A stretch of 64,000 nucleotides of DNA, taken from assembly GCA_973895155.1 (NCBI GenBank), contig OZ316891.1:15903037-15967036 (forward strand), given 5' to 3'. The position numbers were made by a program, and so were the translations under genes. Under the pieces are notes generated by a model. It did no database searches and had not been told where the DNA came from. It was given only the letters and a program-made list of their open reading frames with translations. This document shows, piece after piece, positions 8,217-55,355 of this stretch. Origin of the DNA: Marsupella aquatica. Its lineage: Eukaryota > Plantae > Marchantiophyta. Positions within the stretch are counted from its first letter, which is position 1. Each line of letters opens with the position of its first letter.

Positions 8217-8486
8217 AAATATTTGGTCGTTTGTTTTGTATCCGTTAGGATGTCTTTATACATGAAGACAAGCATAAAACTCTTTATATATTCCGTGAAA
8301 AAACATACACTAGATGTTAACAAAGATCGCTACCAAAATTGTCTTAGTATCTTAACCTAATTTACGCCCAACTAAAGACGTAGAATCTGTAGGTATCGAT
8401 CCTTATATGAATCTCACTCCTTTTGGTCGGGATCTGGACAAAACTTATCCAAAGAAGCAGACATTTCTTCATCCGGGACACCAGTT

Positions 8487-12828: not shown

Positions 12829-13278
12829 CTATAAGCGATTGGTGGTTGAAGCCGTGGTTTCTGAACTGCCAATGGTTAAGTTTCTCAATTCTGATGTCAC
12901 ATGATAGACATTCAATGGATCTTCTGGTTCACTAAAGTTCCAAAAAACGATTACTCGTTCAGCGGCGATTAGCCTCCAGTAGTGACATTGTCGTTGATCG
13001 AGTTCTCGTCCCAACGTCAAGTTCCACTTTGATGACATGATTCCCCTGCAAAATTCTTCAACAGCTTCTTGAGTAGTCAACTGTCGTTGGAAAGTTTCAC
13101 CATTCATGCCGAAAAGCTGCTGCCCTGCTTCATTCCATACTCGGCAGTCTCCCTCCCTAAGGCGGATCATAAATTGGAACATGGGCTTCCCCTCTCCTAT
13201 GAGCTTGCAAATATGAGTGCCTTGATCCCTTGATTGTTCTTCTCCCATTTGCCTTTGTTGTCTTGCTTTCACCCCCAA
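12829..13278 (-). CDS. Putative OB-fold (RPA70 C-terminal-like) fragment inside the LTR-derived insertion
   Basis: FQFMIRLREGDCRVWNEAGQQLFGMNGETF resembles the RPA1 C-domain pattern (l.D.tg...fne.ae.l.G). 5' end cut by the LINE. Motif resemblance only. Confidence 0.4.
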   Translation of the reverse strand: MGVKARQQRQMGEEQSRDQGTHICKLIGEGKPMFQFMIRLREGDCRVWNEAGQQLFGMNGETFQRQLTTQEAVEEFCRGIMSSKWNLTLGRELDQRQCHYWRLIAAERVIVFWNFSEPEDPLNVYHVTSELRNLTIGSSETTASTTNRL

Positions 13279-13300
13279 AGCGCAATCTCTGCCGTCTCCT

Positions 13301-14493: not shown

Positions 14494-14494
14494 A

Positions 14495-15960
14495 GCTAAA
14501 TACCAGTCCTCTAGCTTCCCAGCCGAGGGAGTAGTGGACAATGGATTCTTGATGAGGACGTGCCTCATCCTGGAGGTAGCAGAACGCTTGGAGTTCCAGC
14601 GGTATGCCCTCCACATGATGGAACCATGGGGCAAAATATCCGCCGCCCAGGTCATACAAGTGGAGAACTTTTGGCCTAGGAAGTGGGCGTCCTTCTTCAT
14701 TAAGAAGTTCCACGAGGAGATGGAGCATAGAAGGAAGACCTTATACCTTGGCAGAAAGGCGTACTTTGCGAGCCACATCGATATCATCATCGAGTGGTAT
14801 GCCCGTTTTGACCGCCAAAGCCTTCCCCGTAGCAACGAGATGGAATTGACTCCGTCAAAGTGGGTGTTCCCGGCTCAAGAGAGGCGACCACAGCCCGAGG
14901 CCCAAAACCTGGCTATCGCAAGACCTACTTCCCCGACCCCGCCACCACCTGCTACCGCCCCGCCAAGCATACCCATGGACGCAGTTATAGCGACCTTGGA
15001 AGCAATCAACCAGGTCAACGCAATCAAAGTCGGGCCAGCTGAGGCCAGACCCAAGCCCAATACTATGGTGGCCGAGGAAATCCCGTCACCTCCCACGATT
15101 GTGCAGGAGGACCACCCAGCCCCAGTGGAACCAGCCCCTTTGACTGACTTACCTCAAGGGCTGGATGTTTCCACTCCTACTCCCTCGCGGGCTGGGTCTG
15201 CCCATGCCCAAATCCAGATGGGCATAGTCTGGATCACCCAGAACTCTTTGCGCCGGGCACGTTTCTGAACGGGTTGTTGGGAGATTTCTCTCAACAAATC
15301 GCACAGGATACCAGAGAATACATGGCACGGAAGGTGGCCTACTTCTTCAACCAGGAGTTGGTTGCGGCTGTAAAGGCAGGACATGCGCAAGCTAAGACGG
15401 CACAGAGAATAGAGCGGTACCGAGTTGAATCTGTCTACCTGAAGGACAAAGTGGCAGCCCTGGAGACTGAACTCCAGCAACTGCAACGTCAAGTAAGGGC
15501 CACGGAGGATCAGGTTGCCGAGGCCAGGGCCCGGGCAGCCTTAGCAGAGCAAGGTGGGCTTGGAAAGGACTCTGAGATTGCACAGCTCGGGACCAAGATT
15601 GACGGTTTGAAGGGACAAGTCGTCATTTGGCAGAAAGATCTGGAGGAAGTTGACTCTCAATCTCAGCGGGACGCAGTCAAGATTGACACCCTGAAGACAG
15701 AGGTGGCGCGGCTTCAAGGAGAAGCCACGAAGTAGGCCTAGTTGGAAGATAAGCTGACAAGCAACGTCCAACAACTGGAGGAGGCATGTCAGGAGGCCGC
15801 GGGAGAGACGGACGTGGCAAAGCGTGAGAACAAATTCTGCTGGACCAGGTCTAGCTACTCAAGCAAGATGTCGACAGGCTCAGGAGGCAGTGGGATAGTC
15901 ACTCCCACTTGGGCGGCTCTGGCAAGCGTGCCAGGCATTAGTGGCAGAGTAGGATTAAAA
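14495..15960 (+). pseudogene. Retroelement accessory ORF (Pro-rich linker plus long coiled coil)
   Basis: In-frame ORFs 14381-15268, 15274-15735 and 15742-15963 separated by single stops. Heptad-rich coiled coil like accessory ORFs of Athila/Tat-type gypsy elements. Confidence 0.55.
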
Positions 15961-18900
15961 TAGAGTTAGGAGTAGCTAAATTGGGCTATAGGGACAAGCG
16001 CCTGCCTAGTTAAAGCGGTGTTGCCATACTGTCCAGCCTACGTAGATTAGAATCTCCTAGAAGACAAGCCGTTTTCCAGCCTGACAGCCAGCTTAGTTAG
16101 GATCTTAGTTAGTGAATATTTGGGCTCGAGGCCACTCCGATCCTCGGCCCTTAGTATTTAGTGTACCCCTCGGTAGAGGCAGGAGGGGGGGTTTTTAGTC
16201 TCAGAGTTGGACATCCGCGGCATGTGCGGGGAGTCCTGACCTCTGTGAGTGAAAGAGTACCAAGGGGACGGGGTAGGACTAAGCTCACTGGGCAAGTGCG
16301 GAGCCAGGCTCTGTTGTAGTGTAAACCCTTGGCCTTGGACCTATTCATTCAGGAGTTTTCGGGTCAACCAAGTGTACGTGTATGTCCCCTATGTAGTAAA
16401 ATCCTTTCCCATTATTTCCTTCGTGTAAATCGAGATTGTATGCTTGTGTGTGTGCATATGTGTGAATCTTGTGTATGGGTGCCAACGCTTGGCCGAACGC
16501 ACTACCCGAGCCGTGCACGGGGTGCAACTTGCAGGTAAGTGGTTGCGAGCCCGGGTTGAGTAATCATATCATCAAATTCGGATCAAAGGCGCTTAACACA
16601 AAGGCTTAGAAGCCCGTAAGCCGGGGTCGATCCCGCTATCGACTAAGATACATTCCGGCGGTGAAACACAAACCATACCTAGGAGGTGTCCGTAAATAAT
16701 AGTAGACGCACATAGCGCTAGTTTACGTGAGTCCCGCATTCTGTGCTTCCCTCCCTGCCCGAACCCTCATATTTATGAAGGATGTGCCTGTCTAAGCCAA
16801 AGCCCGGGTTAAGGCCTAGGCTGACAACGTGACAGGCAGCCCTCCTACCCTAGGAAGATCGAACATTGCGCAAGCTTTTGGTTGGAGAAAGTATAAGTCT
16901 TTTCCCGGTACGTAATAAACATTCCCTCGGGTGACACTTACCTTCGTGATTCGTGAGCAGATTTCTCCTGCTTGAGATGTTGATAGATAGCGGTACATTT
17001 GGACCAAGCCGTAAATCCTGGCTCTATTAAGTACCGGTCAACTCTCCTCAATACATTGGACCTCCGTAATGGAGTTGCGGATCATTCTTCTCTTTGGCCG
17101 ACAGGGCTCCCTTCTTGTTCTTGGCCGGGGGGACCTCTGCTCTCCGTGGTCTGCCGTTTCCATTTTTGCTTGATGTAAGTGAGGAGTGAGTGGATGGTGC
17201 TTGTGATCGCCAAGTGTTCTCATAAGGGGGGGGGGGGGGGTTTGTCGAGTGTTCTAATGCGTTGTGAGACGTAAACTAGCCCGCCTTCCTGTCTTAAGCT
17301 CAAATGTGGAGCCTCTTTGGTTCATGGATGTCCGGGAGGGTGGGACGGTCGTTGTCTCATAATTGTGAAGTGCCTCGATTCAGCGGCTCAATTCTGACGA
17401 TCCTAATCATGACATTATTCTAGTGGCGCTCATGATTGTCCTTTTACTCATGACTTGGTAAAGGTACGGTACCTATCGTGATTGTGTACGTAGCTAGTTC
17501 CTTCGTTTGGCGGCGGTATCTTAAGTGCATATTATGGCTATCCTAACCGTATTAGGGTAATAATGGTGCTTTACTGAAAGAGACAAAAAAGATGGGGTCC
17601 GCACAAAGATTTGCAGGTTTGTGAAGAGAGAGCCATTCAGTTGAATATGCCGTGGTCTGATGTTGAGAGGAAAAGGCTTCATGATGAAAAGTTTGCCTTG
17701 CAGCTCAAAGAACAATCTGTCCGCAACAGTAAACTAGCAATTGTTTTGAATCCAGAATACAGAAGTTTTTTTGCCAAATGTTCAAAGTTGTATGAGTATT
17801 GCGAAAGGGAGAAGAGAGAAGGACGTCAACATTGGGATGTGGATTGGATTGGGCTCCAAATGTACACTGCTGTCTCAACTTTAGATCCACTTCTTCAATG
17901 TCAATCGATTGAGGCACAGTGTGAGCCAGAATTGAGGAAGCAATGGTTTCATCCAACGGGATTTTCCGAGAATGAGACCAAGCAGTGGTGTGCCACACAT
18001 GGTCCATGTGGTCATTGGTTGAATCCATTTCTAACCATTTGTTGATAGCCTGTTTGGATGAGATTGGATTAAGTGCTCCTCAGGATTGTTTAGAGTCAAC
18101 ACCTCAAAAAGATCTTGAATCTCTGAAGGAGCAGATCCTCGATGATTTCAAGGATTATGCATTTTGTGTGAGATCCAAGTCAAGTGACAAATTTGATGTT
18201 GATGTAATTCGTCAAAGGGCAAAGCGATATGTTTATCGTTTCTTTGTGGATCAAGAAATTAGTAGTGATTCGTATTTTTGGTGTTACCCCCTTTGTTTTG
18301 CTGGATGGGCAAGCGTTGGGCTAGATGCGGACGGGAATGTTACATATCCTCACTTTTCAATGTATCTTGCGGATGCTTCTCACCCCAAAAGAGACCTTAT
18401 TGCTTGGGAAGTTTTTAATTGTCCCTGGTACCTCGATAGTGATCAGTGGTCAACTGCTTTTGACCAAACGAAAAGATTGGCGTACACCAAGATTGTGAAG
18501 GGCAAGGAGCCCAAGTATATTTTGTCTATGAGATCAAATTTGGTCCAGTGGAGAAGGAAGAAAGGGCTTGTGCCTTGATGGAGGACGTATGTTTGAGGCA
18601 AGGTGTGAGTGTCGATCGCACTCAAAAGTCAAGAGTGAAAGTCGGGGTTCCTGAAAAGGCAGAGTCTCAAATGGTTTTTGCTTCTCAGTAGTCTCTCAGA
18701 ACAAGTAAGTATTGCTAGCGAACCTCGCTATCAAAATAAGTTATATTTGAATAATGTATTCCTGAAGTTTACATTCTGACCTCCCGGTGCTTTTTCAAAA
18801 AAGAGGCGCTCGTTGAGTTCACACAATCAATCGGGAGAGGAAGCCAGTCCAGACACTGATGAGGACGCATCTCCTGAGGAAACTAGTAAGAAAAGAAAGT

Positions 18901-19493
18901 CAAAGAAGGTGGCAGATTTGGGGAGCTCCAAGAAAACAAAGAAGAAACGTAATTTTGCTGACTTGGATGAGGAGGCCAAATTTGATTCAAGATTAAACTC
19001 TGGTTTGGAGAGGAAAGGAATAGAGTTTATTGCAGGGGATAATTGACATATTTTTCTCCAGTCAAGTTTGCTTGACTTGGCCAACTCAATTGTCAATCAA
19101 AGGAAGAAACCATCATGGGTTAGAGAGTGTGACATTTGGATGAAGAGTCTCTTGTCGAGAGGCCTTAGGGAATGTCCTATAGTTTTGGACAAAAAGTACC
19201 TTCCGGGAATAGGTTTTGATTTAGGTTTTGTCTATCTTCCTACTGGACTCTGTCCCCTCATTATTGACAAAACGGTTCCAGAGTGGAACATTTGGGACAA
19301 ATCCCTCCTAGCACATTTTTTCAATATCTACAAACAGTATCTTGCTGATAATGGATTCCTTGTTGTTCTTCATAGTCAGATTTTAATCACACCTCAGCCG
19401 TATATAGTGCAGCTCAAGCTCGTGGTTTTTTCAAGCATGCACAGTCGTACTCAATTTTGCTTCCAGCTCCTTTATGGAAACAAGGTTGGGATC

Positions 19494-19940
19494 AGTTCCT
19501 CCTTTGGGTCCTGACCCTCTTCCTCCAATTCAGCCTCTGAACCGTCGCCGCTTCCATCCGAGTCGAAGGTGTCATCATCCAACCCATCCTCTGAAGGATT
19601 GGCCACCTCCTTCCCTTTAAGTTGACAACGCTCTGCACTTGACGTGTTTGCTGCGGCGGTCGATGGTTTGGCCGCCAGGTCTTTGTTGTCCTACTTGTAA
19701 CGTTCGTCTAGGGAAGTTGATCGGTCCTCCTTCTGTTCTTCTTGAACTTGGGCTCTCCCCTTGGCGGGCCACTCTTTGATCAAGTGTTTTTTGCCATGTC
19801 CCCAACAACCAAATCTGCCCGCAGTCGACCCACCAGGCATGTTGAAGTACTAAGTCCCCACAAAAATCCATTAAGATTTTTGGATTCCGACTTAGCACAA
19901 CCCCGGCCCGGTGTCTATGCCAGCAATTGCTTTGATACCA
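19494..19940 (-). mobile_element. PBS and truncated gag start of an LTR retrotransposon
   Basis: GCTTTGATACCA (19929-19940) is TGGTATCAAAGC, a tRNA-iMet PBS, on the minus strand, 2 nt from the LTR end. Downstream reads MAKTLDQRVARQG. Confidence 0.65.
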
Positions 19941-20266
19941 CAAGTGGTGGACCTTGCCACCTAGCGCCCTCACCAATCCCAGCACCCACGCCTAAGTGCC
20001 CTTGGCAGCTCGCGAACGGCAAGAGCTCGCTTGACTGTGGGAACTGCAAAAGTCTGCCTTCCTAGGAGGAGAACTTATCAAGGCCAAGTTCTTGTGGACT
20101 TCTACTGCCAATCAGCTTGACAACCTTCTGTTCTGTGAGAACACTGTTCTGTGAGAACAGAATTATCGGCATCCGGGAAGCCATCAACCGCTGCAACGAC
20201 ATACATTGGGACCTAAAGGGTAGCACAAAGGTGTGGACAAAGGCAACCGTGCGCGGAGAAACATCC

Positions 20267-23196: not shown

Positions 23197-23328
23197 GGTT
23201 TAGGGTTTAGGCCGTAGCCGGAGCTGAGGCTGTAGCCAGAGTTGAGGCCATAGCCAGAGCTGAGGCCGTAGCCGGAGCTGAGGCCGTAGCCGGAGCTGAG
23301 GCCGTAGCCAGAGCTGAGGCCGAAGCCG
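23188..23328 (+). repeat. Telomere-like (TTTAGGG)x3 followed by about six 18-bp tandem units GCCGTAGCCRGAGCTGAG
   Basis: Read directly at 23188-23211 and 23211-23328. Confidence 0.9.
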
Positions 23329-25169
23329 AGGGTGGACCCGGTCAGGCTGCGGGAGAGTTGACTCGGTCTGGGGCAGGTAATATGTCAAAAGACGGACCTA
23401 CAGCAGTGGTTGTGGAGGAAACATTGGGGGCGTCCATTGAGGATCAGCCACCGCTACCATGACGGTGGTGGAGGGCCGCTCCTTTTAAGGAGGACAGAGT
23501 GGAGGGAGGAGGCATGAGTGGGCAAGGCGGGCAAGTTTAGAATTAGGATAAAGACCAAGAGATGGCCTTGACACTTAGATTAGTGGGATTGCGGATCCAC
23601 TGGTAAGAGCAACACTTGTGTTCTTGCCTCGTTGTACATAGGTAAATTACAGTTAGGATAGATTAGGCTTACGCTGCAAGGAATTAGGCGGATCCATTGC
23701 CAGGATAAGTTCCTGGGCAACGGGGAGTTCAGGGCCTTCTTCTTTAGCAAGTTTTTAGTGCACCAGTAGGGTTGGGATCAAGTAGTAAAAGAAGCTCTCA
23801 GTTAGTTCTACAGTGACACTTTGTGTATATTCATGTTTCCTCATGCCTAAGAGCTGAATAGAGTTGGAATCACGGCTTAGTTCGCAGATCTTGTGTATGA
23901 GAAGTACTGTTTGTATGGCAAGTGCATGGTATAACTCAATCAGAAGGAGTCATTTTGCTATTTGTGTGTTGCATTAACTTGTTTGAAGATTGCCCACATC
24001 AACCAAGAGAGAAGGGAAGTAAGCAAGGTAGTAAGAGTTGGATGTGTCGAGCTGAGAGAGGTCTTAGCGGCTAACCCAAGCCAATTGGGGATCATTCTGA
24101 CGGCGAAATCCAAACATACCTAAAGGAAGACCAGGAGAGGAAGACAAGGGAAGGCATAAAATAGGTCGGCTATTTATCTCATGACCCGATGAAGGATCTG
24201 TCCAGTATATGTGTGTAAAATGTTAGTAGAAGAGATTTAGTAGCGTCCCATGCTGATAAGCCGTGGAACCGGCCTCGCTAAGAGCGAAACCTACGGGAAT
24301 CGGCTTGTGCAGGGGGTTTCTTGGGTTTAGGGAGCCATGGGACGCACCACACTAAGTCCTCCCCGGATGGCCTATCCGGGCTTGGACCATAAGGGAGCTC
24401 GGCGTCGGAGTCAATGACGCCGGAGCTAAGTGTCAAGGTAGTCGAGTTCCGCGACTCAAGGCCATCGTTGGTGTAAAGTAGGTGTAAGCGGTGACCAGGT
24501 TACATTGTAACCTTTCATGCCCCTTATGGAGATTCCACGTGTCACCAGGGCGCCTATCCTCATAAGACTCACGTTCTTATGAAGAATTGACAAGATCATC
24601 AATTTTTGTAGCCATTTTCCCCTCTCCTGAATTTGATCTGAAATGACAGCATTCTCTACTGGATTCGAACGGCAACAGGTCAGCCAATAGCCCAGCCAAG
24701 TTTGTAGCTGCCTTCTCAATCCACCTCCATAACCTCTAGCATTGCAGGTGGTTCAAAATTGCAGCCACAATTTTGCAGTAGCCATAGCTTCTATCAACTT
24801 GTAGCTCTTCCAGTCCTCTTCTTGCATAGTTTCAATTCACAGCAGCATGGATCTTGTTTAGTACTAGTGTTGGCTTTCTGATGGCACTCATTTTTGGCTG
24901 TCTTGGTAAGGGTTTTCTCTGCCCTGTCTTTTGCCTCTTGTTCTTAGAGCTTTTGTCTCTTAGATGGGCCTATGTGTTGGCTGCTTTTGGCCCCCCTTCC
25001 CGTGGGTTTTTGTGGGTTTTATTGAATTTTTAATTTTTTTTAAATAGCAACACGTGTTCCAATGCAAGGTGCTCAAAACCTTGCACCTATATGTATATTT
25101 TGTTGGCTGGGCAAAGGATGTCTTGGTGTAGGTTCTCACTCATCCAAATGAATGGAGAGTGAGCTTGGC

Positions 25170-36903: not shown

Positions 36904-37213
36904 AACACAACCAGTCATAAACAGAACAGATCCTATTTTTAACAGTAACAAAAGTGCACATTCATGTTTGTGGCAAAAGCAACACAACCAGTCATAAACA
37001 GAACAGATCCTATTTTTAACAGTAACAAAAGTGCACATTCATGTTTGTGGCAAAAGCAACACAACCAGTCATAAACAGAACAGATCCTATTTTTTACAGT
37101 AACAAAAGTGCACATTCATGTTTGTGGCAAAAGCAACACAACCAGTCATAAACAAAACAGATCCTATTTTTACAGTAACAAAAGTGCACATTCATGTTTG
37201 TGGCAAAAGCAAC
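36904..37213 (+). repeat. 77-bp tandem repeat x4, near-identical
   Basis: Units start at 36904, 36981, 37058 and 37135. Confidence 0.95.
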
Positions 37214-37449
37214 TTAATTTTTGGGGTGTCATACCGTAAATATTAAACGTAAAAAAACCAGAATACAAAGGAAGAGGTGTCATTTAGTAAAATAAAGTTA
37301 CCATTTGTCAATGATATATCAATGTTTTACATCAAAATGCTTGTATTTTTAATTGTTTGCAAGTTTAAAAACATAACCAATTGATAAAAATGTACATAGT
37401 TAGAACCTCTTTGGCTCCACATTGTAAAACTAAATAATCAATCTCCTTA

Positions 37450-37915
37450 ATACTAGATGAAATTTGTCAATGTTTGATTCATTGGAAAGCTCAAGATCAA
37501 GAAACTCATGAACTCTTTAGTAATGTCTTGATAAAATTTCTCAATGGCACACTCATTGGAAAGCTAGAGTAAAATTAGAAACTCATCATCTTCTTAGTAC
37601 ACAAAATCTATCAATGTTAGGTTCATTGGAAAGTCAAAGAAATTTGGATACTCATGATCTCTCTAATTCTTGACGAATACTCCCAATGGCACACTTTAGA
37701 AAGCTAGAGAGATTGAAAATCTCATGATCTCCTCAGTACCGTGACAAAATCTGACATGAAATTTTTCAATGTTGGACTCAATGTTGGAAAGCTAAAAAAA
37801 CTCATGAACTCATGATCAAAATTTCTTATTGTCACACTCATTGAAAATGCCAGGAAATTCAAAAACTCATTTGGAATTTGACAAAATTTGTCAATTTGAA
37901 ACTCATTGGAAACTC
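37450..37915 (+). repeat. Degenerate ~70-bp tandem array, about 7 units
   Basis: Recurring CATTGGAAAGCT...AACTCATGA core near 37480, 37555, 37624, 37697, 37783, 37839 and 37904. Confidence 0.7.
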
Positions 37916-38927: not shown

Positions 38928-40410
38928 AGTGGTGGACCTTACCACCCAGCGCCCTCACCAATCCCAACACTCACGCCTTTGTGCCCTTGGTGCCCGAACG
39001 CCTCTACGGAATACCTCAAGCAAGCAACCTAGTGCCCCTTGCACCGCCAACGGCCCCTCCCATACGAAGCCGCACTTGCTCTCTAACACGACCGCTACTC
39101 AACGGTCCTCCCTATCTGCACAAGCAACCAAGCACCTCGGTAAGTAACCCTTTAGGATCTAGAACTCGCCAAGTCTAGCATCCTAACTCAAGCTCAATAG
39201 ACGTTGGTAAATAGGTCAGCGATAGGTCCTCTCGATGCCATAAGCCGGAACCAGAGCCCGCGCCCACTGTTCGTCCAAAACAGCTCCTTCCTTGGGCGCG
39301 GCCCGGGTACCCCCTCGTACCTATCCATCACCAACTAACCGTCCTGACCTCAGGACATGCTCATGGCCCAAATAGCGTAGCTTGTCCTAAAGGTTGTCCC
39401 AACACGTCGGGACCAGAACGGCCCCGACTCTAGTAACCGCTCCCGGTTCGCCCCACTGGTGGTCTAGGGGCCGAGCACCCTTGGAACTCAGCCTCCACAC
39501 CTACTTGGCCTTGCCTCCCCAATGCAAGCTCCCTTGGAAGACTGAACACGGCTTGGTTGCTGTTCGGCAAGATTTGGCAAGCGGGCGAGCTAACACCCGC
39601 AAACCACGAGAACCCACGGCACCCTCAGACCCAGATGAGCTCAGGAGGGCGTATCCCTCTTCAAGAGCTTTCCAACGCACCTAAGAAGTCCTCCAACGGA
39701 CTTCCCGTTAGGAAGATATCACCATTTCCATTTGACCGTTTCCCTTAGTGTCGCGACCGCCGCGGCTCACGATTTCGGCTCGCCCTTAGCCCCCAGAGAG
39801 ACACCACTCCCCTCATATATGCTTCTGGAGACCTGCCACCCCCGGACCAACTTTGGTCCCTAAACATTTGGCCCCCAACCCGGATCCCATCGCGCATAAT
39901 GGGCGCGCCACCAACTGGCAACGCCCATAACTTTCTTGATAGGCATCCGCAAGCGGAGTGCCTTAGCTCATTGTGACTGGGCCAACCCAGTGCTCATGCC
40001 TGGGCCCTCAGGTCTGATTGCCGCTCGGGATCCCCGACCGGCCCAACCCGGATTGGGCCACAACTTACGCCCCAAGCGTCCTTTGCCAATGGCGTCAACT
40101 CCATTGGCCTTGGGCCCAAGAGGAGCTCACTCCCAAGCCCTCACAACTCAAAGTCCATCCGGAGGTCCGGACGGCCATCATTGAGCCCGGCCCATTTTCC
40201 CTTGACCCGACCAGCCATAGGCTAGTCCAAGTCCTTAGTGTGTGCCCCCAGCTTGGCTCCTTGCCTCGCTAGACCCACGTCTCATTGCCCACAAGTCTCC
40301 CCATGCTAAGTCCTCCCCTGATGGCCTGTCCGGGCCTGGACCATAAGGGAGCTCGGCGTCGGAGTCAGCGACGCCCGAGCTAAGTGTTAAGGTAGTCGAG
40401 TTCCGTGACT
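38928..40410 (-). mobile_element. Solo LTR with AGT...ACT termini
   Basis: Exact 5-bp TSD GTTTA (38923-38927, 40411-40415). Inverted homolog at 46080-47539. Orientation taken from the PBS at 19929. Confidence 0.85.
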
Positions 40411-40515
40411 GTTTACCTTGGACTCTTTGAGTGAAAGAGTTAATGTTTGTCCAGGTTAGCAGTTTGGTGGTGGGTGTGTAAGTTAGTTACCACCTAAGTT
40501 CTTTACTAGCATCAC

Positions 40516-41006
40516 GAGTAAAGTTACATCATCAATTATCAATCGTTTCCGTCAGTCGACCTGATATCAGTCGCCACATCATCTCAGAGAGGCCGCCAAG
40601 ATGTGGAGCCGAAAAAAAATGCGAAAAAAAAAATTCAATTTTTTTCTCAAAATTTAATGAATAAAAAAAATTGAAATTTTTTTGACTCTGGGTGTCCGTA
40701 CCGTACGGACATCACTTCTCGTCGGGGCCAGGGGATATGGCCAGGCGTCCGTACGGTACGGACACCAAATTTCGTAAACTTTTTTTTTCAATTTTTTTTC
40801 ATTTTGAATTTTTCAAGAAAATAATTTTTAATTTTTTTTCTCATTTTTTTGTCCGTACGCTGATCTCGGCGAGGTCAGCTGAGATTGAGTCAATCTCAGC
40901 TACCTAGCTGAGATGCGTGGAAGTGCAAAGTCATCATCTCAACTGCTCAACTGAGATTCAAAATAATTTCAGCAGAAAAACTGATAATTGATGATCCTCG
41001 CTAGCC
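40516..41006. mobile_element. Mutator-like foldback MITE
   Basis: Flanking direct repeat CTAGCATCAC (40506-40515, 41007-41016). Subterminal IR ATCATCAATTATCA / TGATAATTGATGAT. Internal 20-bp inverted pair at 40691 and 40748. Confidence 0.75.
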
Positions 41007-44396: not shown

Positions 44397-44733
44397 GGGT
44401 ATAACCACCGTGCCAGGAAACAGTAAAAAGGAAACAGCAAACTGTAAACAGTACACAGCAAATGGATGCAAAATTTTGATTTTTTTTGAATTATTTTTTG
44501 GAATTTGTTTTTTGGAATTTGTTTTTTGGTTTGTATTTTTGACATTTTTTTACTAGCGCCCCAAGCTAGTAATAGTAGCGTCTGGCGCTAGCCAAAAATG
44601 ATCGTTTTAAAAAATATTTTGAAATTTTTGAGTTTTAATGAGAAATTTTTTATATTTCATTTTTGCTCGTAACAGTAAAATTTTGCTCATAACAGGAATC
44701 ATTTTCCTGTTTCCTGGCACGGTGTAAAGCCTT
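44397..44733. mobile_element. MITE of the MULE-like family inserted in the copia pol
   Basis: 18-bp perfect subterminal IR CACCGTGCCAGGAAACAG (44406-44423, 44707-44724). 8-bp TSD GTCACGTG. Left end GGGTATAACCACC identical to 47938. Two TAGC-N7-GCTA sites. Confidence 0.88.
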
Positions 44734-46079
44734 GTCACGTGCAATGAAATGAGATCCACCAGCTTCTAGAGCACCCAGGGAACCCAAATTCTTAAAGATG
44801 TCTGGTATGTGCCTCAGTTGTGTTAGTGCTAGCACAACACCATCAAACATCCGGAGTGATAGTCTCCGTGCCAACGATCGCACATCGGACACCATTTCCA
44901 ATTTCCACAGTACCAGTACATTGGAGAAATACAATTGCGTTGGACACACGCAATAAGAGGAACCTGAATCCAACATCCATTTATTGTCATACACACAATT
45001 CACAACACAGATACATAGCACTTCAGTGGTATCCTCATTTTCAGCAATCACAATCCAGCTGATGAGGAGGACGCACCATTGGAAGCAGGATACTTCTCCT
45101 TTGACAAAGAAGGATAATTCCACTTGGTGTGGCCCTTCTCATGGCAATGCCAACACTGAATTTCTTGCTACGGGACTTAGATTTAGATCTACCTTGAGAT
45201 TTGGATCTAGACTGGTCTGTAGTACGCTTTGTTGATCTTCCTCTAACCATTAAGGCAGTAGATTTATCTCCACAATCAAAAAGGTGTTGCTTGCTCCATT
45301 CTACAAGAACGGTAGCCTTCACCATATCCAATTTCAACGTAGTCTTGTCATGTGTGATGACTGTTACCAATGTCAAAAAACTCTTTGGAAGTGACATCAA
45401 CAAACGCATGGCAAGATAGTCATTGGTCAACTTATCTCCCACCGTGGTCACCTCGTGCACAATCTCATCAAAGAGACTCAAATGATCATGCATGTTTCCA
45501 CCATCCTTCCACTTCAACTTGAACAACCACTCCAACTGATAAATATGAGTCAATAGTCAACAAAGTACTCCCGTATGGCTGAGTAAGCATTTCCCAGATC
45601 TTCTTGGCATTCCGATCCATCCCCAACACGTTCTTGAGAATGTTGTTGGCCAAGACCAACTCAATTGTACTACACGCCTGCACCAACATGTCTTCCCACT
45701 CCTCATCTGCTAGAGTCAAGGGCTTCACTCCAGTGACGGTCTTCTCAAGGACCTGCTAAATCAGCACGTTGGTCACCTTCCAAGTCTAGAGGCTAAAGCT
45801 GACTTTCCCGTCAAACTTCTCCACCTCAAAATTTGACGCTGCAAGCTTTTGTGAAGCCATGGATGCTTCCTCAAACACACAGGAAACACAAGTAATAAAC
45901 GACCTCCACTCAAAAATTTACCAAAATTGAGAGTTGGCAAATTTGAGTTCTAAATGCACTAGCGTAACCAATTTTTTCAAACTGACTTTAATAAGAAAGT
46001 TATTGGCAAAAACATTTTTCGGTTTGCTCTTGGTTCAACCCTACTTAGGATCACCCTTGGGGCGAGGTTGCTTCAAGTC

Positions 46080-47539
46080 AGTCGCAGAACTTGACTACCT
46101 TAACACTTAGCTCCGATGTCGCTGACTCCGACGCCAAACTCCCTTATGGTCTAGGCCCAGAGGACTTAGCATGGGACGACTTGTGGGAAATGAGACGTGG
46201 CACTGGCGAAGGCAAAGCGCCAAGCCGGTGGCACACACTAAGGACTTAGGCTAGCTGAGAGCTGGTCGGGTCAAGGGGAAAAAGGTTGACCATCCGGACC
46301 CCCGAATGGACTTTGAGTTCTGAGGGCTTGAGTGTGAGATCCTCTTGGGCCCAAGGCCAATGGAGTTGACGCCACATGTGGGCTACGGATGCTTGGGGCG
46401 TGAGTTATGGCCCAATCTGGGTTTGGCTGATCGGGGACCCCAAGCGGCAATGAGACTTGAGGGCCTAGGCATGAGCATTGGGTCGGCCCGATCACAACGG
46501 GCTAAGGCACTCCACTTGCAGACGTCTAACGAGAAAGTTATGGGCGTTGCCAGTTGGTGGTGCGCCCAGTATGCAAGATAGGGTCCGGGTTGGGGGCCAA
46601 AAGTTTAGGGACCAAAGCTGGTCCAGGGGTGGCAGGTCTCCAGAAGTATATATGAGGGGAGTGGTGTCTCCCTAGGGGCTAAGTGCGAGCCAAAGTCGTG
46701 AGCTGCGGGGGTCACGACACTAAGGGAAAATGCCAAACGGAAACGATGATATCTTCCCAACGGGAAGTCCATTGGAGGACTTCTTGGGTGTGTTGGAAAG
46801 CTCTCATGGAGGGCTAAGTCCTCCTAGATCAGCTAGTTCTGGGGGCACCATGGGTTCTTGAGGTTTGCGGGTGTTATCTCGCCCGCTTGCCAAATCCTGC
46901 CAAAACAGCAGCCAAGCCGCATTCAGTCTCTCAAGGGAGTTGTGTTGGGGAGGCAAGGCCAAGTAGGCATGGAGGTTGAATTCCAAGGGCACTTGGCCCC
47001 TAGACCATCAGCAGGGCGGAAATTGGGAGTTGATTGCTAGAGTCGGGGCCATTCTGGTCCCGGGGCGTTGGGACAACCTTTGGGACAAGCTACGCTTTTG
47101 TGCCATGACATATCCTGGGGTCAGGGCGGTCAGTTGGTGATGGATAGGTATGAGGGGGAACCCGGGCCGCGCCCAAGGAAGGAGTTGTTCTAGACGAATA
47201 GTGGGCGTGGGTTTTGGTTCCGGCTTATGGCGTCGGGAGGACCTATCGTTGACCTATTTACCAATGTCTATTGAGCTTGAGTTAGGATGCTAGACTTGGG
47301 AGTTCTAGATCCTGAAGGGTTACTTACCGAGGTGCTTGGTTGCTTGTGTAGACTGTGAGGATCATTGAGCAGCGGGCGAGTTAGAGAGCAAGTGCGGCTT
47401 TGTATGGGAGGGGCCGCGGGTGGTGCAAGGGACACCAAGGTGCTTTCTCGAGGTATTTCGTGGAGGCATTCGGGCACCAAAGACACTTAGACGTGGGTGT
47501 CGGGATTGGTGAGGGCGTTAGGTGGCAAGGTCCACCACT
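46080..47539 (+). mobile_element. Solo LTR with AGT...ACT termini
   Basis: Reverse-complement homolog of 38928-40410. TSD AAGTC/AGGTC with one mismatch. Confidence 0.82.
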
Positions 47540-48396
47540 AGGTCACTATCAAAAACCCTTTTACCTTAGTTTATTGTTCACTTATGAGGGGCCCACCTAT
47601 TGGCCTTATCAGAGTATAACATGTGCCGCTATGAGCACGGTTGAGGTAGATTCTTAATCCCAATCTTATCACTCAAAAATCCGTGCTTAGTTCTTGACCA
47701 ACCAAAAAATAATTTGATCTACACGATTGATTGCCCGGATCCAACAATCCCCAATTGTATCAAAAAACCACAACATTTGAATGTAGAAATACACAAGAAT
47801 TGTGGCACCGGTTGGAGAAAATCCTCTCCCAAACTTAGCTAACTACAAATTGTAAAGGTTTAACAAGCTATACCTATCTTAATACAACTCAATTTTGGTC
47901 AAAACGACTCGCGACAAGGTGCTCAACCATGGATTTTGGGTATAACCACCATGACAGCAAATAATAAATAGATTTGCTGTTATGAGCAAATTTTTTGCTC
48001 GTACGAGCAAAAATTTACTCATATGAGGAATTCAATTACTCATAGTAGAAAATCTGTTTACTCATACAAGAAACTATTTACTTGTACAAATTTTCTAGGT
48101 TATTCAAAGTTGACAAAAAGGGCTCCATGTTAAAAAACAACAACCATATAAGCGCTCACTGAAATGCTACTCACAATGGGGCCCACCATTCAATGATAAA
48201 TAACAGACAATATAGAGGTCATTATAAGAAGATGCGCTTTATTTCACAGTCAATATATTTGCTATCTGTTGCAAATTTTGGCTAGCGCCTGGCGCTAGCA
48301 ACAGACACTACATATTTTTGGATAAGAAACGGGTACATCTTCTGCTCGGTAGAAAAGACAAATGCCACTTAAAGTTGTTGAACGTCACCAAATTGA

Positions 48397-49350
48397 CTAC
48401 ATGTCCATTTCATTTTGTCGATCAAGAAGGTAACGGACTTCGCCCAATGTCAAAAGTGGTTGACTAGATAGTGTCAAATCGTGAAGACTCAACTTCAACA
48501 TAGTCCTGAATACCCAATATAGATGTTTGCAAGGCATGTAAGGTTTCCTATAAATGTGCCCCCGATAGAAATCCTCACATGAACAGCAAGGGAAACAACA
48601 AATCTGCACCCAATAAGAGGTACAGTCCTCTCATGTTCATGTGTTCTGATACAATACTACTTCCCCCACGCATTCGCACTCGTGACATCTCTCTCACATA
48701 CGAGTCTCATTACTTCTGTTTTGGATGCTTCGATCTTCTTGTAATGTGTTTGAGTTAGATTCACTCTCTGCAAGCACTTCCTTCCATTCTTGGAGCCACA
48801 TCTGAAAATTGGGTCCGCTAAATTGATCCTCTCTTGGAACAAATTCACATCGATGCGTAACTCAGACGGGGATGGCTCTTGACCTTCCCTTATCTCTCCT
48901 GTCCCAATTAGACCTTGTTCTCTCAAGAATTGGATCTCGCCCTCCTGGAGATTGGTCCCTCTCGCAATGGGAAGAACGGGTGGTATATTGGGAATGTTTG
49001 AAACACCTCTTCTTGGCCAAATTTTGTAACATTTGTTGTTTGGGCAAAACCATATCTGGTCTGGATGAGGTTCTCCTCTAAAAAGTCTACATCCTTTTAC
49101 AAATATTGCGACAACTCCTTCTACGCACGTTTAGGATCGTTGTCAATCATTCGTCCATATCGGTACAGCACCACAAAAAACGTTGTATCACGCAAGAAGC
49201 ACGTTGAGGTGCGGGTTCCCCGTGTGTGCATCTTAAACAAACATGGAGAATCATTCTCCTGGCCATTCTGAAACATCCGAGTCCTCATTCTCCGGATCAG
49301 TTTATTCTCGGAGAGTCACTCGTTCGTCTGCGTCAAACTCTTTGTGAAAC
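48397..49350 (-). pseudogene. Cys-rich / SWIM zinc-finger gene (copy 2)
   Basis: IWFCPNNKC and SWIM signature CSCEDF...MPCKHLYWVF (CxC...CxH). Frameshifted; start approximate. Confidence 0.78.
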
Positions 49351-49386
49351 ATTAGTCAGTCGATTCCAAAGCCAAAACAAGGCATC

Positions 49387-52300
49387 ATGGAGTCATACGG
49401 AGATTTTGCGATGGAGGACGGTGGCGAGGGAGTCCTGTCCATGGATGCTGTGATCAAGAAATACGCAATGTCATTTGGAGTCGATTTCAGAGGGGAGAAG
49501 AAAGAGCCGCCGCGTATCCCTCTTTGTCGGCTTGTTCACATGGAAATCGTTCGGACTTTATAGAAAAATAGTGCATCTATCGATAAGCTCAAGGATTCAT
49601 TTCGGAGCTCTGGGTACAACGCTTCAATTGGGATGCGGTTTTACATCCAGCCCACGGATTCAGAAGGAGTCGTTCAATTCTGCACGCCTGAAATTCGGGA
49701 GACATGGGATGCTGTTTGGGTTGCCCAGAATGACTTGTTTGAAGCAGAATGTGCTACTGATCCAGATTTCCACATTTTGAAGGATAAGATGTTCTGTGTT
49801 TTTGACGGGAATCATCGACTCTACTCGTGGACCCAAGTAACAAATGAGAATCCAGACAATATCAAGTACCATCCGCGTGTTCAATGCACTGTTTTTAAGG
49901 GAGATCAGGGTTCTCTAGTTGAGCTTGAAGCGGCTATGCACACGGTGAACCAGTAAGTATTCCTCAAGTTGCATAAACGCTATTGAATTTGGTCGATTGC
50001 GCTTGATTTTTGCAAAGTTAGTTATGGCCAGGCGCTAATATTTGCCATTATACCTTACAGGTTAGGGCAAGCTGTGGTGAAACCATCGTGGATTCTCGAT
50101 GCCGGTAGAATCAATCGGATTTTAACTCATGACTTGGAGGCCTACAAGCCGATCATCGACCCCGGAAGCTTCAAGCGATTTCAAACTGTTCATGCCAAAA
50201 CAAGAAAGGGGTCTTGGTATACCAAGCAGATGCCATTGGAAGCATTGGTTTACATCTTGTGTGAAAACAAGATTAAGTCGTATTCACTTCAATTTAAGCT
50301 TGACTTGGCTGATGCGACAAGTCAAGGTCGCCCGTGGTCATCTGAAGAGACTGGTAAGCGGTATGCTGCCATGATGAAGGAGGCAACGAAGGAGTGGAGC
50401 ATAAAGACATCCAAGATTACCCCCCTGATAAGCCCAGAGTTTGGTGATTTTCTGTCAACTTGTGCAGAAATGTACGTTCTTACGGAGAGGAACAAACGAG
50501 AAAAGAAGCCGGACTCTATAGTATGTACAATGGACCGCGCGCATCTATTCACTGCTGTCTCCTACTTGGATCAACAACTGCGCTGTACTCTTCTTGTTGC
50601 TCACTGTACACCCAAGCTCATAAAACAATTTTACCATCCCCCGAGTGTGAATGATGACCTTGTTAAACAGTGGTGTCATACATGGCACATGTGGAGTTTG
50701 GTGGAAGGAATTGCAATTGCAATGTTACAGACATCTCTTTCGCAAGTCCAGTCGATCCTACCTGCTGATCGTTTGACGCTAGGAGGAGTGGAGACGTTTG
50801 AAGCTTTGGTCTTGAACATCACCAATGATTTCAAGACATACGGTGAAACAGTGAAGGCAAAGTTTTTTAGCACAATTTGGCAGTCCAAGTACGGAGACAA
50901 GGAAGACTATACCATTCGCAACCAGAAGCGAGCCAAGAGATATCTGTATCGCTTCTACATGGCGATGGAGACCAGTTCTCCAAAGTATTTTTGGGCTTAC
51001 CCTCCTGCATTCCAAGAATGGTCCGTTCTAGAGGGGGATGAGTTTAGCAAAGTTTACTCAATGTACCCTGCCGAAGGGGACGTTCCACCATGTGACATTT
51101 CATTGTGGGAGATAACCCACTGTCCATGGTATCTTGACACAGATAAGTGGGACACCCCTTTCGATGAAGCTGAAAAGGATGCATTTCTGAAATTATCAAA
51201 GTCTTTAGTCCCTCGGAAAGTTCTCTCTGAAATGAAACAAGGTTTATCGGAAGATGTAGATGCCTCGGCGAGCAAGCTGTAGAAACATTGCAAAACAGAA
51301 GTTTTGCATGTAGACAGGAGTCGAAAACCCCGGGCGAAAGCAAAAGTAGACACTGGAGTAACCAGCCCATCAACGAGATCCGGGAAGAAACGTGAGATTC
51401 TTCTATTTTTCATTGGCATTCCGTATTTTCCCTTCACCAGTTTGGATATTTAGGTGTCTTTTTGTTTAGCGCCACAGATGTTGGTGTCCATTTATTTCTT
51501 GATTTTTGTGCAGTTTGGTTAGCGCCCGGCGCTGGTGTTATTTTCCATTGGCATTCTGTATTTTCTCTCCACCAGCTTGATTATGTCAGTGACTTTTGAT
51601 GAGCGCTGCAGATCAAGTTGTCTATTTATCGGTTGATTTTGTGGGCAGTTTGGTTAGCGCCCAACGCTGGTGTTATGTGGACCGTAATCTTGGAAACTTT
51701 TGTTTCATTTTCTAGGTGGACGGAAATCGGATGGAGAAGAAACACAAGATGCAAAGACGACAATCACTCCTGGAGTCTCTGAAGCTGATACGGGGGAACA
51801 AGATGTCCCTGATGAACAGACTCCTCCCAACACGGAGAAGATGGTGCGACCTGCAGATGCCACCAGCACGAAGAAAAAGAAATCTTTGGATCATGGATTT
51901 TCCTCTCGGGATTCAGTCGCTTCTATTGGTGTTCAACGAGATGTTGGACAGTTCAAGTCTAAGACTTCTAGGCATGTTTTTGTTGAGTCCAGCGTAATGG
52001 ACTTCTTTGAGAGTGTGTTCATGAAAGAGCATAAACCGGCTTGGGTGTCAAATGTGGAGAAGTGGGTGAAAGACCTAGTCTTGCTTGGTCTAAGGGAGAA
52101 AGGAGTCATAAGAGGAGGGAAGATAAGATCATTTGGAGTTGATGCTGGATTTGTTTACCTCCCAACTGGACTGCGCCCTTCCCTTTTAGAGAAGAAGTCT
52201 CCAAAATGGAATTCCCCAGATCACAGAATTGTTGGTTCATTCTTTCGCGCAATGGACCCCTTTCTAGCAGATGATGGTATATTGGCCATTTTGCATACCG

Positions 52301-53587
52301 GCGAGTATGATCAGATCTCGCAGGTCATCGCCGCGAGCCAGGAGTCTCAAAAGTTTCAGTGTGTGAAAACCCTGAAGTGGTTATGGGAGTTCCAATGTAC
52401 ATGGCCCGAAGTGATTGCCAGGTAAATTCTCTCACTCTTCGTGCTGTCCTTTGTTAGCGCCGAGCGCTAGCTAAAAATGTTTTCATATACCTTTCGGTTA
52501 AGGGGATATTCTTTGTTAGCGCCTGGCGCTATCCAAAATTCATTGTTATGCCGTGATTTAAATGATTTTCTGGTTGGATCGTCGACATCTTAACAATGGA
52601 CTTTGTTGGGATTTCATAGGTTTTCACATTGAGATTGGATCTGTTCAATCGTGTTTCGTCAAAGGTTAAAGTTCCAAAGGACCCCAAGTTTTGACCCCTC
52701 TCTGCAACTGAAGATCCTTCTATCACTAACCTTATTGGTCTCCCGAGTGTGAGGAAGGATCCAACTCCTTCAGCAGCGTTTGCTGGCAATGGACGCTTGT
52801 CCGTTGGGTTCATGCAATCTGTGTTAGAGTTAATCACTCGGCCGGGTGACATTGTCATGGACTGGACTGTGGGTTCGGGAAGTACATTTGTTGCTGGTGA
52901 CTATTGTGGTTGTTTTATTCTTGGTATAGAAAACCGAAAAGAGTTGTTGAGATTGCGGAAAAGACATGGATGGATTTATTGATTCCAAAGGATGTCAGTT
53001 CCTCATCTCCCGCTAAAGATGTGGGAAGAAAACAAAAAGATAAAGTTCGCTCTGTCTTAAATTTTGACTCTGAAGATGAAGAGGATGGAGATGCTGTTGG
53101 AGATGATGCTTCAGGAGGACAAGGAGAGGAAAATGAAGGAGACGAGAAGGAGAGGCATACGACGGAAGAAACATAAGATTCAGATTCTTCTGAGTAATGC
53201 CCGTAAGCTACTTCACTTTATGTTATCGATTCTGTTATTGTCCCATTTTCATTTTCAACTCTAATATGGTTCCGTTCCTTTTCCAGATCGGAGTGGAATC
53301 TTCAAGAATGTTTTAATCTTTGGAGGAAATACTCGAGAAAAGTTCTCGTTTCTCCTCAAAAGCCTTTCGTGTTGCCCTCGTATGCAGAATATGCTGCACG
53401 CAAAGAAGAACAGAGGAGAACACTTACTTGGGAGAGTAAGGGCTTAAGGTTAAGAAGAGGTTCAGATAGGAAATTCATCCACCAGCCTTTACTTAACGAT
53501 GGACCTAGAAGCGAATTTATAGATGATGAAGCTGAGTCTACTGATAGGTCTGGCAGTAGCGAGTCCGAGTCTTCTGACTTCGAATAG
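49387..53587 (+). pseudogene. ParB/Srx-like domain fused to a beta-class N4C/N6A DNA methyltransferase fold, about 5 exons
   Basis: Exons 49387-49952, 50061-51391, 51716-52421, 52620 to about 53202, 53287-53587 (GT-AG). VFDGNHRL at 49804. VDAGFVYLPTG at the motif IV position. LITRPGDIVMDWTVGSGSTFVAG...ILGIE as motifs X/I/II. Stops at 49561, 51280 and 52692 plus at least two frameshifts. Confidence 0.82.
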
Positions 53588-54048
53588 GTTGAGTGGGAAT
53601 TTCTAAGGTTTTCTTTGGAACCTTGTACTAGCGCCCGACGCTATTAAACAGGGTGTTCGGATCTGAGACTTTAAAGGAGATAGACGCACCGGGAGTCTCT
53701 TTCCTGAGTGCATATTTGTGCAGATATCAGAACTGCATGTACTCGTACAGTTGTATGGTGAATAATTATACCTTCAGTCTGTACATATTTTTGTTTGTGG
53801 TTGATATGATCGTTTGGACTCTCTCAAAGTGTAGTGTTTGTTCAACTTCGGGATTGTTCAACTTCGTGATTGTTCAACCCTAAACTCATTTCTCCCTTTC
53901 ATTTCTGTTAGGCGCTGACTCTCCTCTTCACTTCATTTCGTTTGTGCACTGCCCAGACTCACCTCTTCCCTTCGTTTCATTTCTGGTCTGCCCGGACTCA
54001 CCTCTTCTCTTCTCCCTGAGTTTTGCATCCGTTGTTTCCATCGACTCA

Positions 54049-54519
54049 ATGGATAAGGGAAAGCAAATAGCGAAATCGGAGAGCTGCAATCCGCCAAAGG
54101 CGATGGTTTGGAGGTCAATTAGAGATCCAGGTTTAGATTTGACTCCATCTTTTACGCAGTGCCCAGAGACGTCGACCAAGAGGAACAGGTTGTGGCTGGC
54201 CCTGGATGAGGGTATTAGCCACAGAACTGGACACCTTCCATCGCGTGATCCTTCGCCTCCACTTCCTTTCCGAGAGAGGTTCTCTGTTCACGACCCGGAT
54301 CCTTCCAATGTGTATCGGGTGGAAAGGACAGCTTTTTTCAGAGACATCCAAGCAGACACCGGACATGTGAACTTTTCAGATTCGAACATCCCGAACGACC
54401 GGAGTCGGAGTCGCTATCCCGGACCTCATTTTTTTCTGGATCGAGAGGATGGGTTTCGACAGGATGAGGATAGGTTCAAAGCTGGATTGGACGACGACTG
54501 CATGTCTTCTACTTCCTAG
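54049..54519 (+). CDS. Small orphan gene of the MULE-like family (copy 2), open frame
   Basis: MDKGKQIAK...; homologous to 8487-8923 (-). Confidence 0.55.
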   Translation: MDKGKQIAKSESCNPPKAMVWRSIRDPGLDLTPSFTQCPETSTKRNRLWLALDEGISHRTGHLPSRDPSPPLPFRERFSVHDPDPSNVYRVERTAFFRDIQADTGHVNFSDSNIPNDRSRSRYPGPHFFLDREDGFRQDEDRFKAGLDDDCMSSTS

Positions 54520-55355
54520 AGAGTGTGGATTTCTTCTTCGACACTAGCGCCAGGCGCTAGCTTTCATCTCATCTTTGGAGTCGTTCATGAGTTTGATTCA
54601 TGTCATCTTTTTGAATGGGGGCTCCGGTTCGGCCGAGTTAGCTTTATTCCTTCCGTTTTATTATCGCATTAGGTTTTTTGAGAATGTTATTAGGGTTATT
54701 TCTTTTTCTCGAAGGTTATGGACTTTTATTACCTTCTGGATATCAATGTAATTTCTTTTTCAAGTAGCGCCTATTGCTAGCGCTTGGTGCTACTATTATA
54801 TGTTCCATTCTCCTCCACAATTATGTAAACCCGCCTCTATAAAATTGTGTCTTTCATCTTTTTTTTTTCTAGTGTCCTCCAAATATGCTGCGAATACTAT
54901 TAGTGGCTCTTTTATTGTTGAAATTGGTTGTTTCCTGTTACTGGAATCGGGTTCCTGTCAAATGGAAAGCCCTCTGACAAAATGATCTTTAAGCTTCATC
55001 CGATGTATTCGGTCTTACCGAGCCAGCCAGTTTTGAATGTCGAAGAACTCCAGTTCATCGTAGGAAGGGAGAATCTGCATGGTTCATTCAATGATACGTT
55101 GAATGGACATTTTGTTAATGTTGTTTTGAACGGCAACAAACTCTTGGTTAGCGCTCGGCGCTAGTAAAACTTGTCTTTCCATAATTACTGTAGAGAACGC
55201 TAAACATATTGGAGTTCCTATTGAAATTGGCCTCCTTTTTTGTCCAAAATTATGTCATCTTTTGTGTATGCTAGTACCAATCTCCTGTTTTGTTCCTCTC
55301 TTTTTCCTGTTATGATTGTTACTGTTTTCTGTTTCCTGTCATGGGGAAAAACCTC

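Follow-up and report, generated by a model that had tools for sequence, protein, structure and literature searches.

A dead Mutator-like transposon of the liverwort Marsupella aquatica belongs to a family carrying a predicted ParB-methyltransferase-fold gene and candidate recognition palindromes

Here, we describe a transposon in a 64,000-nucleotide stretch of the genome of the liverwort Marsupella aquatica (GenBank assembly GCA_973895155.1, contig OZ316891.1, positions 15,903,037 to 15,967,036 of the forward strand), which we call the window and in whose numbering all positions are given. The segment 47938-55355, hereafter the main element, is a dead copy that lacks a transposase and belongs to a multi-copy family of Mutator-like elements (MULEs). 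From left to right, it contains a terminus, a segment on the minus strand with a zinc finger that we take to be of the SWIM type on the basis of its CxC...CxH pattern, a five-exon accessory gene on the plus strand, an orphan open reading frame (ORF) of 156 amino acids, and a second terminus. The accessory gene would encode a ParB fold, a helical region, and a beta-class amino-methyltransferase (MTase) fold, in this order. We tentatively propose, as a possibility that we rate somewhat short of probable, that this helper protein loads on palindromes of its own element and would shield it from silencing, the MTase fold probably binding DNA rather than methylating it in the ordinary manner. We infer each functional step of this proposal from what was observed, that is, the gene structure, the two folds in a homologue, the head-to-head layout, the palindrome arrays, the purifying selection, and the departure of the catalytic motif from its canonical form.

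An earlier, sequence-only reading of this DNA had enclosed the element in matching termini bearing GGGTAT. The two ends have only CCATGACAG in common, a 9-bp core located 11 bp inward; the outer bases are mismatched and GGGTAT is confined to the left end. The terminal inverted repeats (TIRs) of MULEs are long in most families and absent in some. The first 13 bp of the left end are identical to the left end of a miniature inverted-repeat transposable element (MITE) at 44397; in this MITE, as in the main element, the outer 10-11 bp are unequal between the two ends, and such asymmetry is possibly a family trait. No target-site duplication was found at the main element, whose flanks (TGGATTTT and CGACAATT) differ, and the 8-bp duplications expected by the earlier reading belong instead to two MITEs, at 7922-8216 and 44397-44733, both falling within the 8-11 bp range described for MULEs (PMC6446971). 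The right flank of the main element is a Copia reverse transcriptase and the left flank does not continue the Copia sequence; the left junction is bridged, with 0-1 mismatches, by contigs of the public sequencing runs X1, X2, and X3. The missing duplication may thus reflect an adjacent deletion or a recombinant element.

The whole main element is covered by contigs of four public runs at 80-100% identity, with 856-1846 contigs per run; the summed depth does not represent a copy number, but the element clearly belongs to a repeat family. The window copy itself has decayed. Its accessory gene contains four premature stops, of which that at 49561 is private (all contigs differ there), and two frameshifts, at both of which most of the contig depth has an extra base. 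The 16 best-supported exon differences between the window copy and the family comprise 12 non-synonymous changes, one stop, and only three synonymous changes, as would be expected from a dead copy.

The main element also lacks a MULE-type DDE transposase, which is present in a second, strongly diverged copy of the family (35-50% identity) at 4.3-19.5 kb. In that copy, the SWIM region continues the transposase in frame across one stop (ORFs 5024-5455 and 4778-5023), so that the CxC...CxH finger lies directly behind the transposase, and the same order is found in a metagenome locus (L019) in which the SWIM region trails the transposase. The piece that had been read as a separate SWIM gene thus represents the 3′ terminal part of a MULE transposase and is not cargo. 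A stand-alone SWIM gene was considered and rejected, as no in-frame start codon precedes the homologous part when the majority differences are applied (40 of 1140 listed; a spliced start is possible). Homology to the transposase ceases at about 49122 in the main element, so that this copy has lost the DDE core and is non-autonomous. When compared with the MULE clusters of the Atlas, the transposase of the second copy had a top match of 0.95 with 174 shared features, and 10 of its 10 best named matches were in the MULE clan; PF10551 is present on only 15% of the members of the best-matching cluster, and a Pfam scan of the transposase and SWIM region gave no match. The earlier claim that three genes recur next to a MULE transposase at 4.2-19.5 kb therefore survives as to the second copy and its transposase, but not as to the SWIM piece, which belongs to the transposase. 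The orphan ORF, which had also been noticed, does have its counterpart there (Table 1).

The accessory gene spans 3,478 nt of exons, or about 1,160 codons, and its four introns are all of the GT..AG type with compatible phases. Its exon pieces are collinear with the Riccia proteins P0154 (1207 amino acids), P0025, and P0182, and the five-exon gene proposed from the sequence is thereby confirmed. In the second copy, an insertion of about 6.7 kb (10922-17650) interrupts the gene. A nearly intact ParB-MTase gene was also observed in a metagenome locus (L010:170-3760); it is intron-rich, with more introns than the window gene.

An N-terminal ParB fold in the family is supported by structure modelling. 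We modelled 1024 residues of Riccia P0154 with AlphaFold from 93 alignment rows; the mean pLDDT was 65, with values above 90 across most of the N-terminal domain and low values around motif I of the MTase part. The N-terminal domain matches ParB-nucleotide structures with Z scores of 8.7-9.1 and a root-mean-square deviation (rmsd) of 2.2-2.4 over 94-98 residues, the top match being ParB-CTPgS (Z 9.1, rmsd 2.3 over 98 residues); a sulfiredoxin match scored lower (6.1). The C-terminal part matches beta-class amino-methyltransferases with Z scores of 7.7-8.8, those of the CcrM/MboII type scoring 8.3-8.8 over 174-214 residues. Although such Z scores are of intermediate strength, the matches are consistent for each range and agree with sequence matches to PF01555 (E 8e-6) and, in the PDB, to M1.HpyAVI (E 3e-4). 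Myxococcus ParB and Noc align only loosely with residues 22-381 of the model, DNA-binding domain included (187-195 residues). The sequence evidence for ParB is weak: the match to phrog_1033 has an E value of 0.012, a Pfam scan of 94 family members gave no ParB match, and a profile search with the ParB alignment against PDB sequences gave none either. Foldseek against the PDB and viral models found no match at E <= 0.001. Thus, the two folds predicted by the sequence-only reading are both recovered on the homologue model, while its expectation of profile matches holds for PF01555 and not for ParB. A core of the form D-G-N-H-R-x-x-A, which to us resembles the GxxRxxA box of ParB, has its GNHR columns conserved in 78-93 of the 94 sequences, and the ParB cores of the two window copies differ at proportions of 0.70 for synonymous (pS) versus 0.24 for non-synonymous sites (pN).

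The candidate target for such a protein is a palindrome, TAGC-N7-GCTA. The first pattern, TAGCR-N5-YGCTA, was picked by eye and occurs 13 times in the window with 0.07 expected; all 13 exact sites lie within family DNA, which represents 28% of the window, none of them in coding DNA and eight of them in the main element. We therefore scanned all 3840 gapped palindromes, among which TAGC-N7-GCTA ranks first (15 seen versus 0.13 expected), and the remaining 46 kb of the window contain no comparable enrichment in the same scan. The window palindrome is nearly absent from related metagenome loci (two matches in 419 kb), which have palindromes of their own, for instance, GGTGCC-N6-GGCACC-like words, of which L007 has 15, and ACTT-N10-AAGT-like words, which recur in eight clusters. 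Arrays at P <= 1e-5 were found in 12 of 38 gene-proximal segments versus none of 30 control segments (Fisher 7e-4). In this comparison, eleven loci were of insufficient length, the window supplied five of the controls, and the loci, being related, are not independent of one another; the counts are per locus, the pooled count having been set aside because it is inflated by shared coding sequence. These results make the arrays a candidate target for self-recognition, apparently specific to each subfamily. If so, the helical region, in dimeric form, would read the 15-bp palindrome in the way that ParB reads parS, the ParB domain would close as a CTP clamp and spread along the element, allowing a few sites to cover several kilobases, and transposase-less copies such as the main element, together with MITEs, would retain the sites and move with a transposase supplied in trans. 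In intron 2 (51404-51676), we also observed a tandem duplication of 135 bp, each unit of which contains one palindrome, resembling the tandem spread of VANC motifs.

The same palindromes could instead be transposase sites, with the ParB-MTase protein acting as a transposition helper that pairs the poorly matched ends or holds the excised element and plays no role in silencing. We consider this unlikely, although several observations would suit it: both MITEs carry the palindrome, internal sites could aid the synapsis of poorly matching ends, and MuDR-type MULEs are described as carrying a second ORF that is required for integration (PMC6446971). However, the sites of the main element are spread across its whole length, in introns and spacers, and not just near its ends, the arrays of related loci lie directly upstream of the accessory gene or inside it, and inverted repeats of this kind are reported to be bound by ParB proteins (10.1101/2025.02.11.637652).

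The proposal that the protein shields the element depends further on the MTase fold, which shows the permuted beta-class order, with motif IV preceding motif I, and whose motif IV is altered. The profile places D-L-P-T opposite the DPPY of CcrM, and none of the 21 database homologues presents the canonical [DNS]PP[YFW]: 18 have D[LM][PS][ST] and the others DVPF (a fern protein), DFPI, and YLPT. Both window copies have YLPT, and five readable metagenome copies have DIPE (L010), DVPR, NVPG, DVHG, and DILG. In the window lineage, Tyr replaces Asp, with no variant at these codons among the 40 of 46 differences listed. For comparison, the rotifer enzyme N4CMT is reported to lose its activity when the two outer residues of the motif are exchanged, turning SPPY into APPA (PMC8885841). 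Nevertheless, the MTase exon differs among family copies at 24 synonymous versus 16 non-synonymous positions (pN/pS about 0.21; 40 of 46 listed), and purifying selection despite the altered motif suggests that the domain is maintained, its role probably differing from ordinary methyl transfer. From its sequence, the protein is probably not an ordinary methylase. We propose that the fold would retain the binding of S-adenosylmethionine (SAM) and of DNA or a base and would block or remove host silencing marks, as VANC does for VANDAL elements. The earlier idea of a MULE family with ParB-MTase cargo for self-recognition is thus supported, the palindrome arrays being its candidate target, while the "marking" that was part of it is weakened by the non-canonical motif IV of every homologue observed. 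An Atlas match of exon 3 to spermidine-synthase-like fragments (0.82) is a lead only.

Alternatively, the protein might be catalytically active and use an unusual catalytic loop to mark its own element with N4-methylcytosine (4mC) or N6-methyladenine (6mA). The fold and its order are those of the beta class, motif I is retained, Asp and Pro occupy motif IV in most homologues, with DVPF in the fern protein as one example, the exon is under purifying selection, and marking has been proposed for the algal proteins (PMC12477816). We nonetheless regard this as quite unlikely, as the canonical motif is missing from every database homologue, from both window copies, and from all five readable metagenome copies, and the Tyr for Asp replacement of the window lineage shows no variation among the differences listed.

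The family is not confined to the window. Word-based protein searches with exons 1 and 2 gave no matches, but a full HMMER scan with exon 1 later found 222 clusters (at 50% identity) at E <= 0.001, 80 of them at <= 1e-10, of which the best 150 were listed. Thirty matches that we looked up correspond to Riccia sorocarpa (12), Adiantum (6), and unnamed Logan/JGI/ENA proteins (12), and a profile of the MTase exon added 14 homologues, 13 of them from Riccia. Two ankyrin proteins among the HMMER matches (P0114 and P0130) were spurious and were dropped. The window copies group with 13 of the 14 labelled Riccia proteins in a clade of 47 members (support 0.98) when 126 ParB domains are placed in a midpoint-rooted FastTree, a position that by itself would suggest a liverwort or another seed-free plant as the probable host. 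An initial metagenome scan found no relatives; a later one confirmed 174, from which 80 loci were kept, 49 of them distinct at 97%. Viral contigs and GTDB genomes searched with the same patterns yielded no relatives. Among the 19 loci with at least 4 kb of downstream DNA, 16 have same-strand MTase pieces in that DNA. Six of the 49 loci (five of the 19 with at least 4 kb upstream) contain transposase or SWIM pieces, in all six upstream and on the opposite strand, and four of these also have the MTase. In L015 (8498-9055) and also in L016 and L026, a SWIM-only transposase remnant precedes the ParB gene at a distance of 1.1-1.5 kb, a reduced layout like that of the main element that here occurs in another host, reflecting either repeated deletion or a retained function of the SWIM piece. 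That the gene is passive cargo, captured in the manner of Pack-MULEs and useless to the element, would fit the broken state of every window copy and the neutral-looking private changes of the main element, but it is largely refuted and highly improbable, given the recurrence of the head-to-head layout in distant loci, the number of clusters, the purifying selection at the family level, and the divergence of the arrays by subfamily.

Several observations weigh against the proposal that the helper protein loads on palindromes and shields its element. The model behind the ParB fold is that of a Riccia protein, which is 33% identical to the window protein in this domain, a single-sequence model of the window protein being poor (pLDDT 34) and left unused, and the match to the DNA-binding domain has an rmsd of 8-10 A. 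There is no significant array in 26 of the 38 gene-proximal segments, and the palindromes of the MITEs would be just as compatible with a transposase site. As all but one of the 21 homologues retain the aspartate of motif IV, a residual chemistry is possible. No transposase was found in 14 of the 19 loci with long upstream DNA; these misses say little, as 194 kb were searched upstream versus 92 kb downstream, the profiles were iterated on the same loci, and the copies are mostly decayed. CpG retention was also considered as a sign of escape from silencing and rejected as unspecific: the observed/expected ratio of the element is 0.75 versus 0.14-0.47 in two Copia elements and a long interspersed nuclear element (LINE), yet an unrelated repeat reaches 0.73.

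The features of the family in the window are collected in Table 1. Other repeats surround them. Inverted 1.5-kb arms at 38928-40411 and 46079-47539, 84.5% identical, flank a Copia element. Further matches to the two ends of the arm lie at 19942-20005 and 24347-24456, which would suit arms that are shortened forms of a 4.5-kb repeat. Near the Copia end, 40674-40783 contains a 37-bp inverted repeat of GTCCGTACCGTACGGAC-like words, possibly a small non-autonomous element. Tandem arrays are located at 23202-23345 (18-bp units), 36904-37213 (77-bp), and 37441-37912 (about 70-bp). LINE fragments with an endonuclease match occur at 667-2770 and 13294-13633, and near-identical 3′ pieces of 230-350 bp are found in three places.

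Table 1. Features of the MULE family in the 64,000-nucleotide window
Feature	Position	Strand	Remarks
Main element, left terminus	47938-47957	+	GGGTAT start, CCATGACAG core
Main element, 3′ remnant of MULE transposase with SWIM-type zinc finger (CxC...CxH)	48400-49122	-	One stop, one frameshift; DDE core absent
Main element, exon 1, predicted ParB/Srx-fold domain	49387-49952	+	Conserved IPLCR, R55, DGNHRxx[AS]W, N187; stop at 49561
Main element, exon 2, helical region	50061-51391	+	First part loosely aligns with ParB/Noc DNA-binding domain; stop at 51280
Main element, exon 3, linker then first half of predicted beta-class amino-MTase fold	51716-52421	+	Motif IV position YLPT (52156-52167); frameshift near 52376
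Main element, exon 4, second half of predicted MTase fold	52620-53193	+	SAM-binding motif I 52857-52886; stops 52692, 53174; frameshift near 52943
Main element, exon 5, acidic tail	53287-53587	+	LPxYA and FIDDEA motifs, present in Riccia homologues too
Main element, orphan ORF, 156 amino acids	54049-54519	+	Diverged counterpart in second copy at 8.4-8.9 kb (33%, E 2e-8)
Main element, TAGC-N7-GCTA palindromes (consensus TAGCGCCNGGCGCTA)	48283-55163		Exact at 48283, 52455, 52517, 53629, 54545, 54765, 54778, 55149; one mismatch at 51520, 51655
Main element, right terminus	55336-55355	-	CCATGACAG core as at left, outer 11 bp different
Second copy, decayed MULE transposase ending in SWIM region	4350-7679	-	
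Second copy, orphan homologue	8362-8932	-	Upstream of and on opposite strand to ParB-MTase gene
Second copy, palindromes	9246, 9348, 9464, 18716		
Second copy, ParB-MTase gene	10063-19500 (10063-10922 + 17650-19500)	+	Motif IV YLPT; stops before motif I
Third, half copy: SWIM region and terminus at 4347	2770-4347	+	LINE cuts left side
MITE with GGGTAT ends	7922-8216	.	Perfect 8-bp duplication AAATATTT, one palindrome, inserted in second copy
MITE with related termini	44397-44733	.	Perfect 8-bp duplication GTCACGTG, two palindromes, inside Copia element

These observations extend a class of elements to liverworts and ferns, in which transformation and methylome tools exist, and, as full-length homologues (for instance, Riccia KAL3677308.1) and a candidate site for each subfamily are available, the idea is directly testable, with the caution that the methylase is probably abnormal. 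A stronger version of the proposal is doubtful: an old, widespread MULE lineage of seed-free land plants would have a true CTP-gated ParB sliding clamp in eukaryotic chromatin, loading at subfamily-specific, parS-like palindromes, with a repurposed MTase fold stripping or blocking silencing. Were this so, plants would have a second anti-silencing system, derived from bacteria and with a reprogrammable address code of 15-20 bp, and a ParB sliding clamp would operate in a eukaryotic nucleus and could become a tool for epigenome editing at the kilobase scale.

Parts of this design are known from other systems. The sequence-only reading had known of no described family with this architecture, but one has been published for the Ectocarpus element Sola1-1_Ec32, in which a 1104-amino-acid gene with a ParB-like domain and an N4/N6-methyltransferase lies opposite the transposase and has been proposed to bind and modify its own element (PMC12477816). 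As in Sola1-1_Ec32, both domains are found here in a single protein of about 1,100 amino acids encoded on the strand opposite to the transposase. In contrast, the carrier is a land-plant MULE family with 8-bp duplications (at the MITEs) rather than an element with a 4-bp duplication and a 282-bp TIR, and palindrome arrays and a non-canonical motif IV like those of our family are not mentioned for Sola1-1_Ec32 in the available text of PMC12477816; we liken the two by architecture only. In the red-algal Plavaka elements, with their accessory genes PAG2 and PAG3, a ParB-like domain is reported beside inverted-repeat arrays, with a PF01555 methylase in the same element, and the cassette is also reported in Mutator and Zisupton elements (10.1101/2025.02.11.637652). 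There, however, two genes are involved, one joining ParB to a 2-oxoglutarate (2OG) oxygenase and the other joining the methylase to a SET domain, while here ParB and the methylase fold are parts of one protein. Thus, the land-plant variant appears to be new, and the class has already been proposed in algae, in Ectocarpus and, in split form, in red-algal Plavaka. A land-plant MULE with a ParB-MTase gene, an altered motif IV, and subfamily-specific arrays is undescribed in the literature that we searched, which did not extend to Repbase reports, subscription papers, or the 2011 review cited in PMC12477816 for similar algal proteins.

The two domains also have relatives outside transposons. Like the CTP clamps of bacterial ParB and Noc with their parS sites, the family combines the predicted N-terminal fold with palindromic candidate sites of 15-20 bp, but unlike them, it has a domain insertion of about 60 residues, a fused MTase fold, and a spliced gene, and no ParA was seen. 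The permuted fold is shared with CcrM, M.MboIIA, M.PvuII, rotifer N4CMT (PMC8885841), and Marchantia MpDN4MT1, which is described as having no added domains (10.1101/2021.02.12.428880). These are host or restriction enzymes with DPPY or SPPY, whereas here the motif is altered and the gene is transposon cargo. ParB fused to a helix-turn-helix (HTH) and to Dam methylases, a different methylase group, has been reported in chlorophytes and chytrids (Iyer et al. 2016, PMC4738411).

The closest parallel for the proposed function is the VANDAL/VANC system of Arabidopsis. VANC binds short motifs in the introns and spacers of its own VANDAL elements and causes a hypomethylation that spreads (PMC5735166), and VANDALs are described as the sole transposons for which binding to their own chromatin, and its alteration, have been demonstrated (10.1101/2025.02.11.637652). 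As in VANDAL, the carrier is a MULE that has an accessory gene and whose introns and spacers contain short motifs specific to the subfamily. The VANC motifs are of 8-9 bp and are not long gapped palindromes, and no ParB or methylase fold is mentioned for VANC in the available text of PMC5735166. Anti-silencing, which has been shown for VANC, is a role that the ParB-MTase family may share by analogy.

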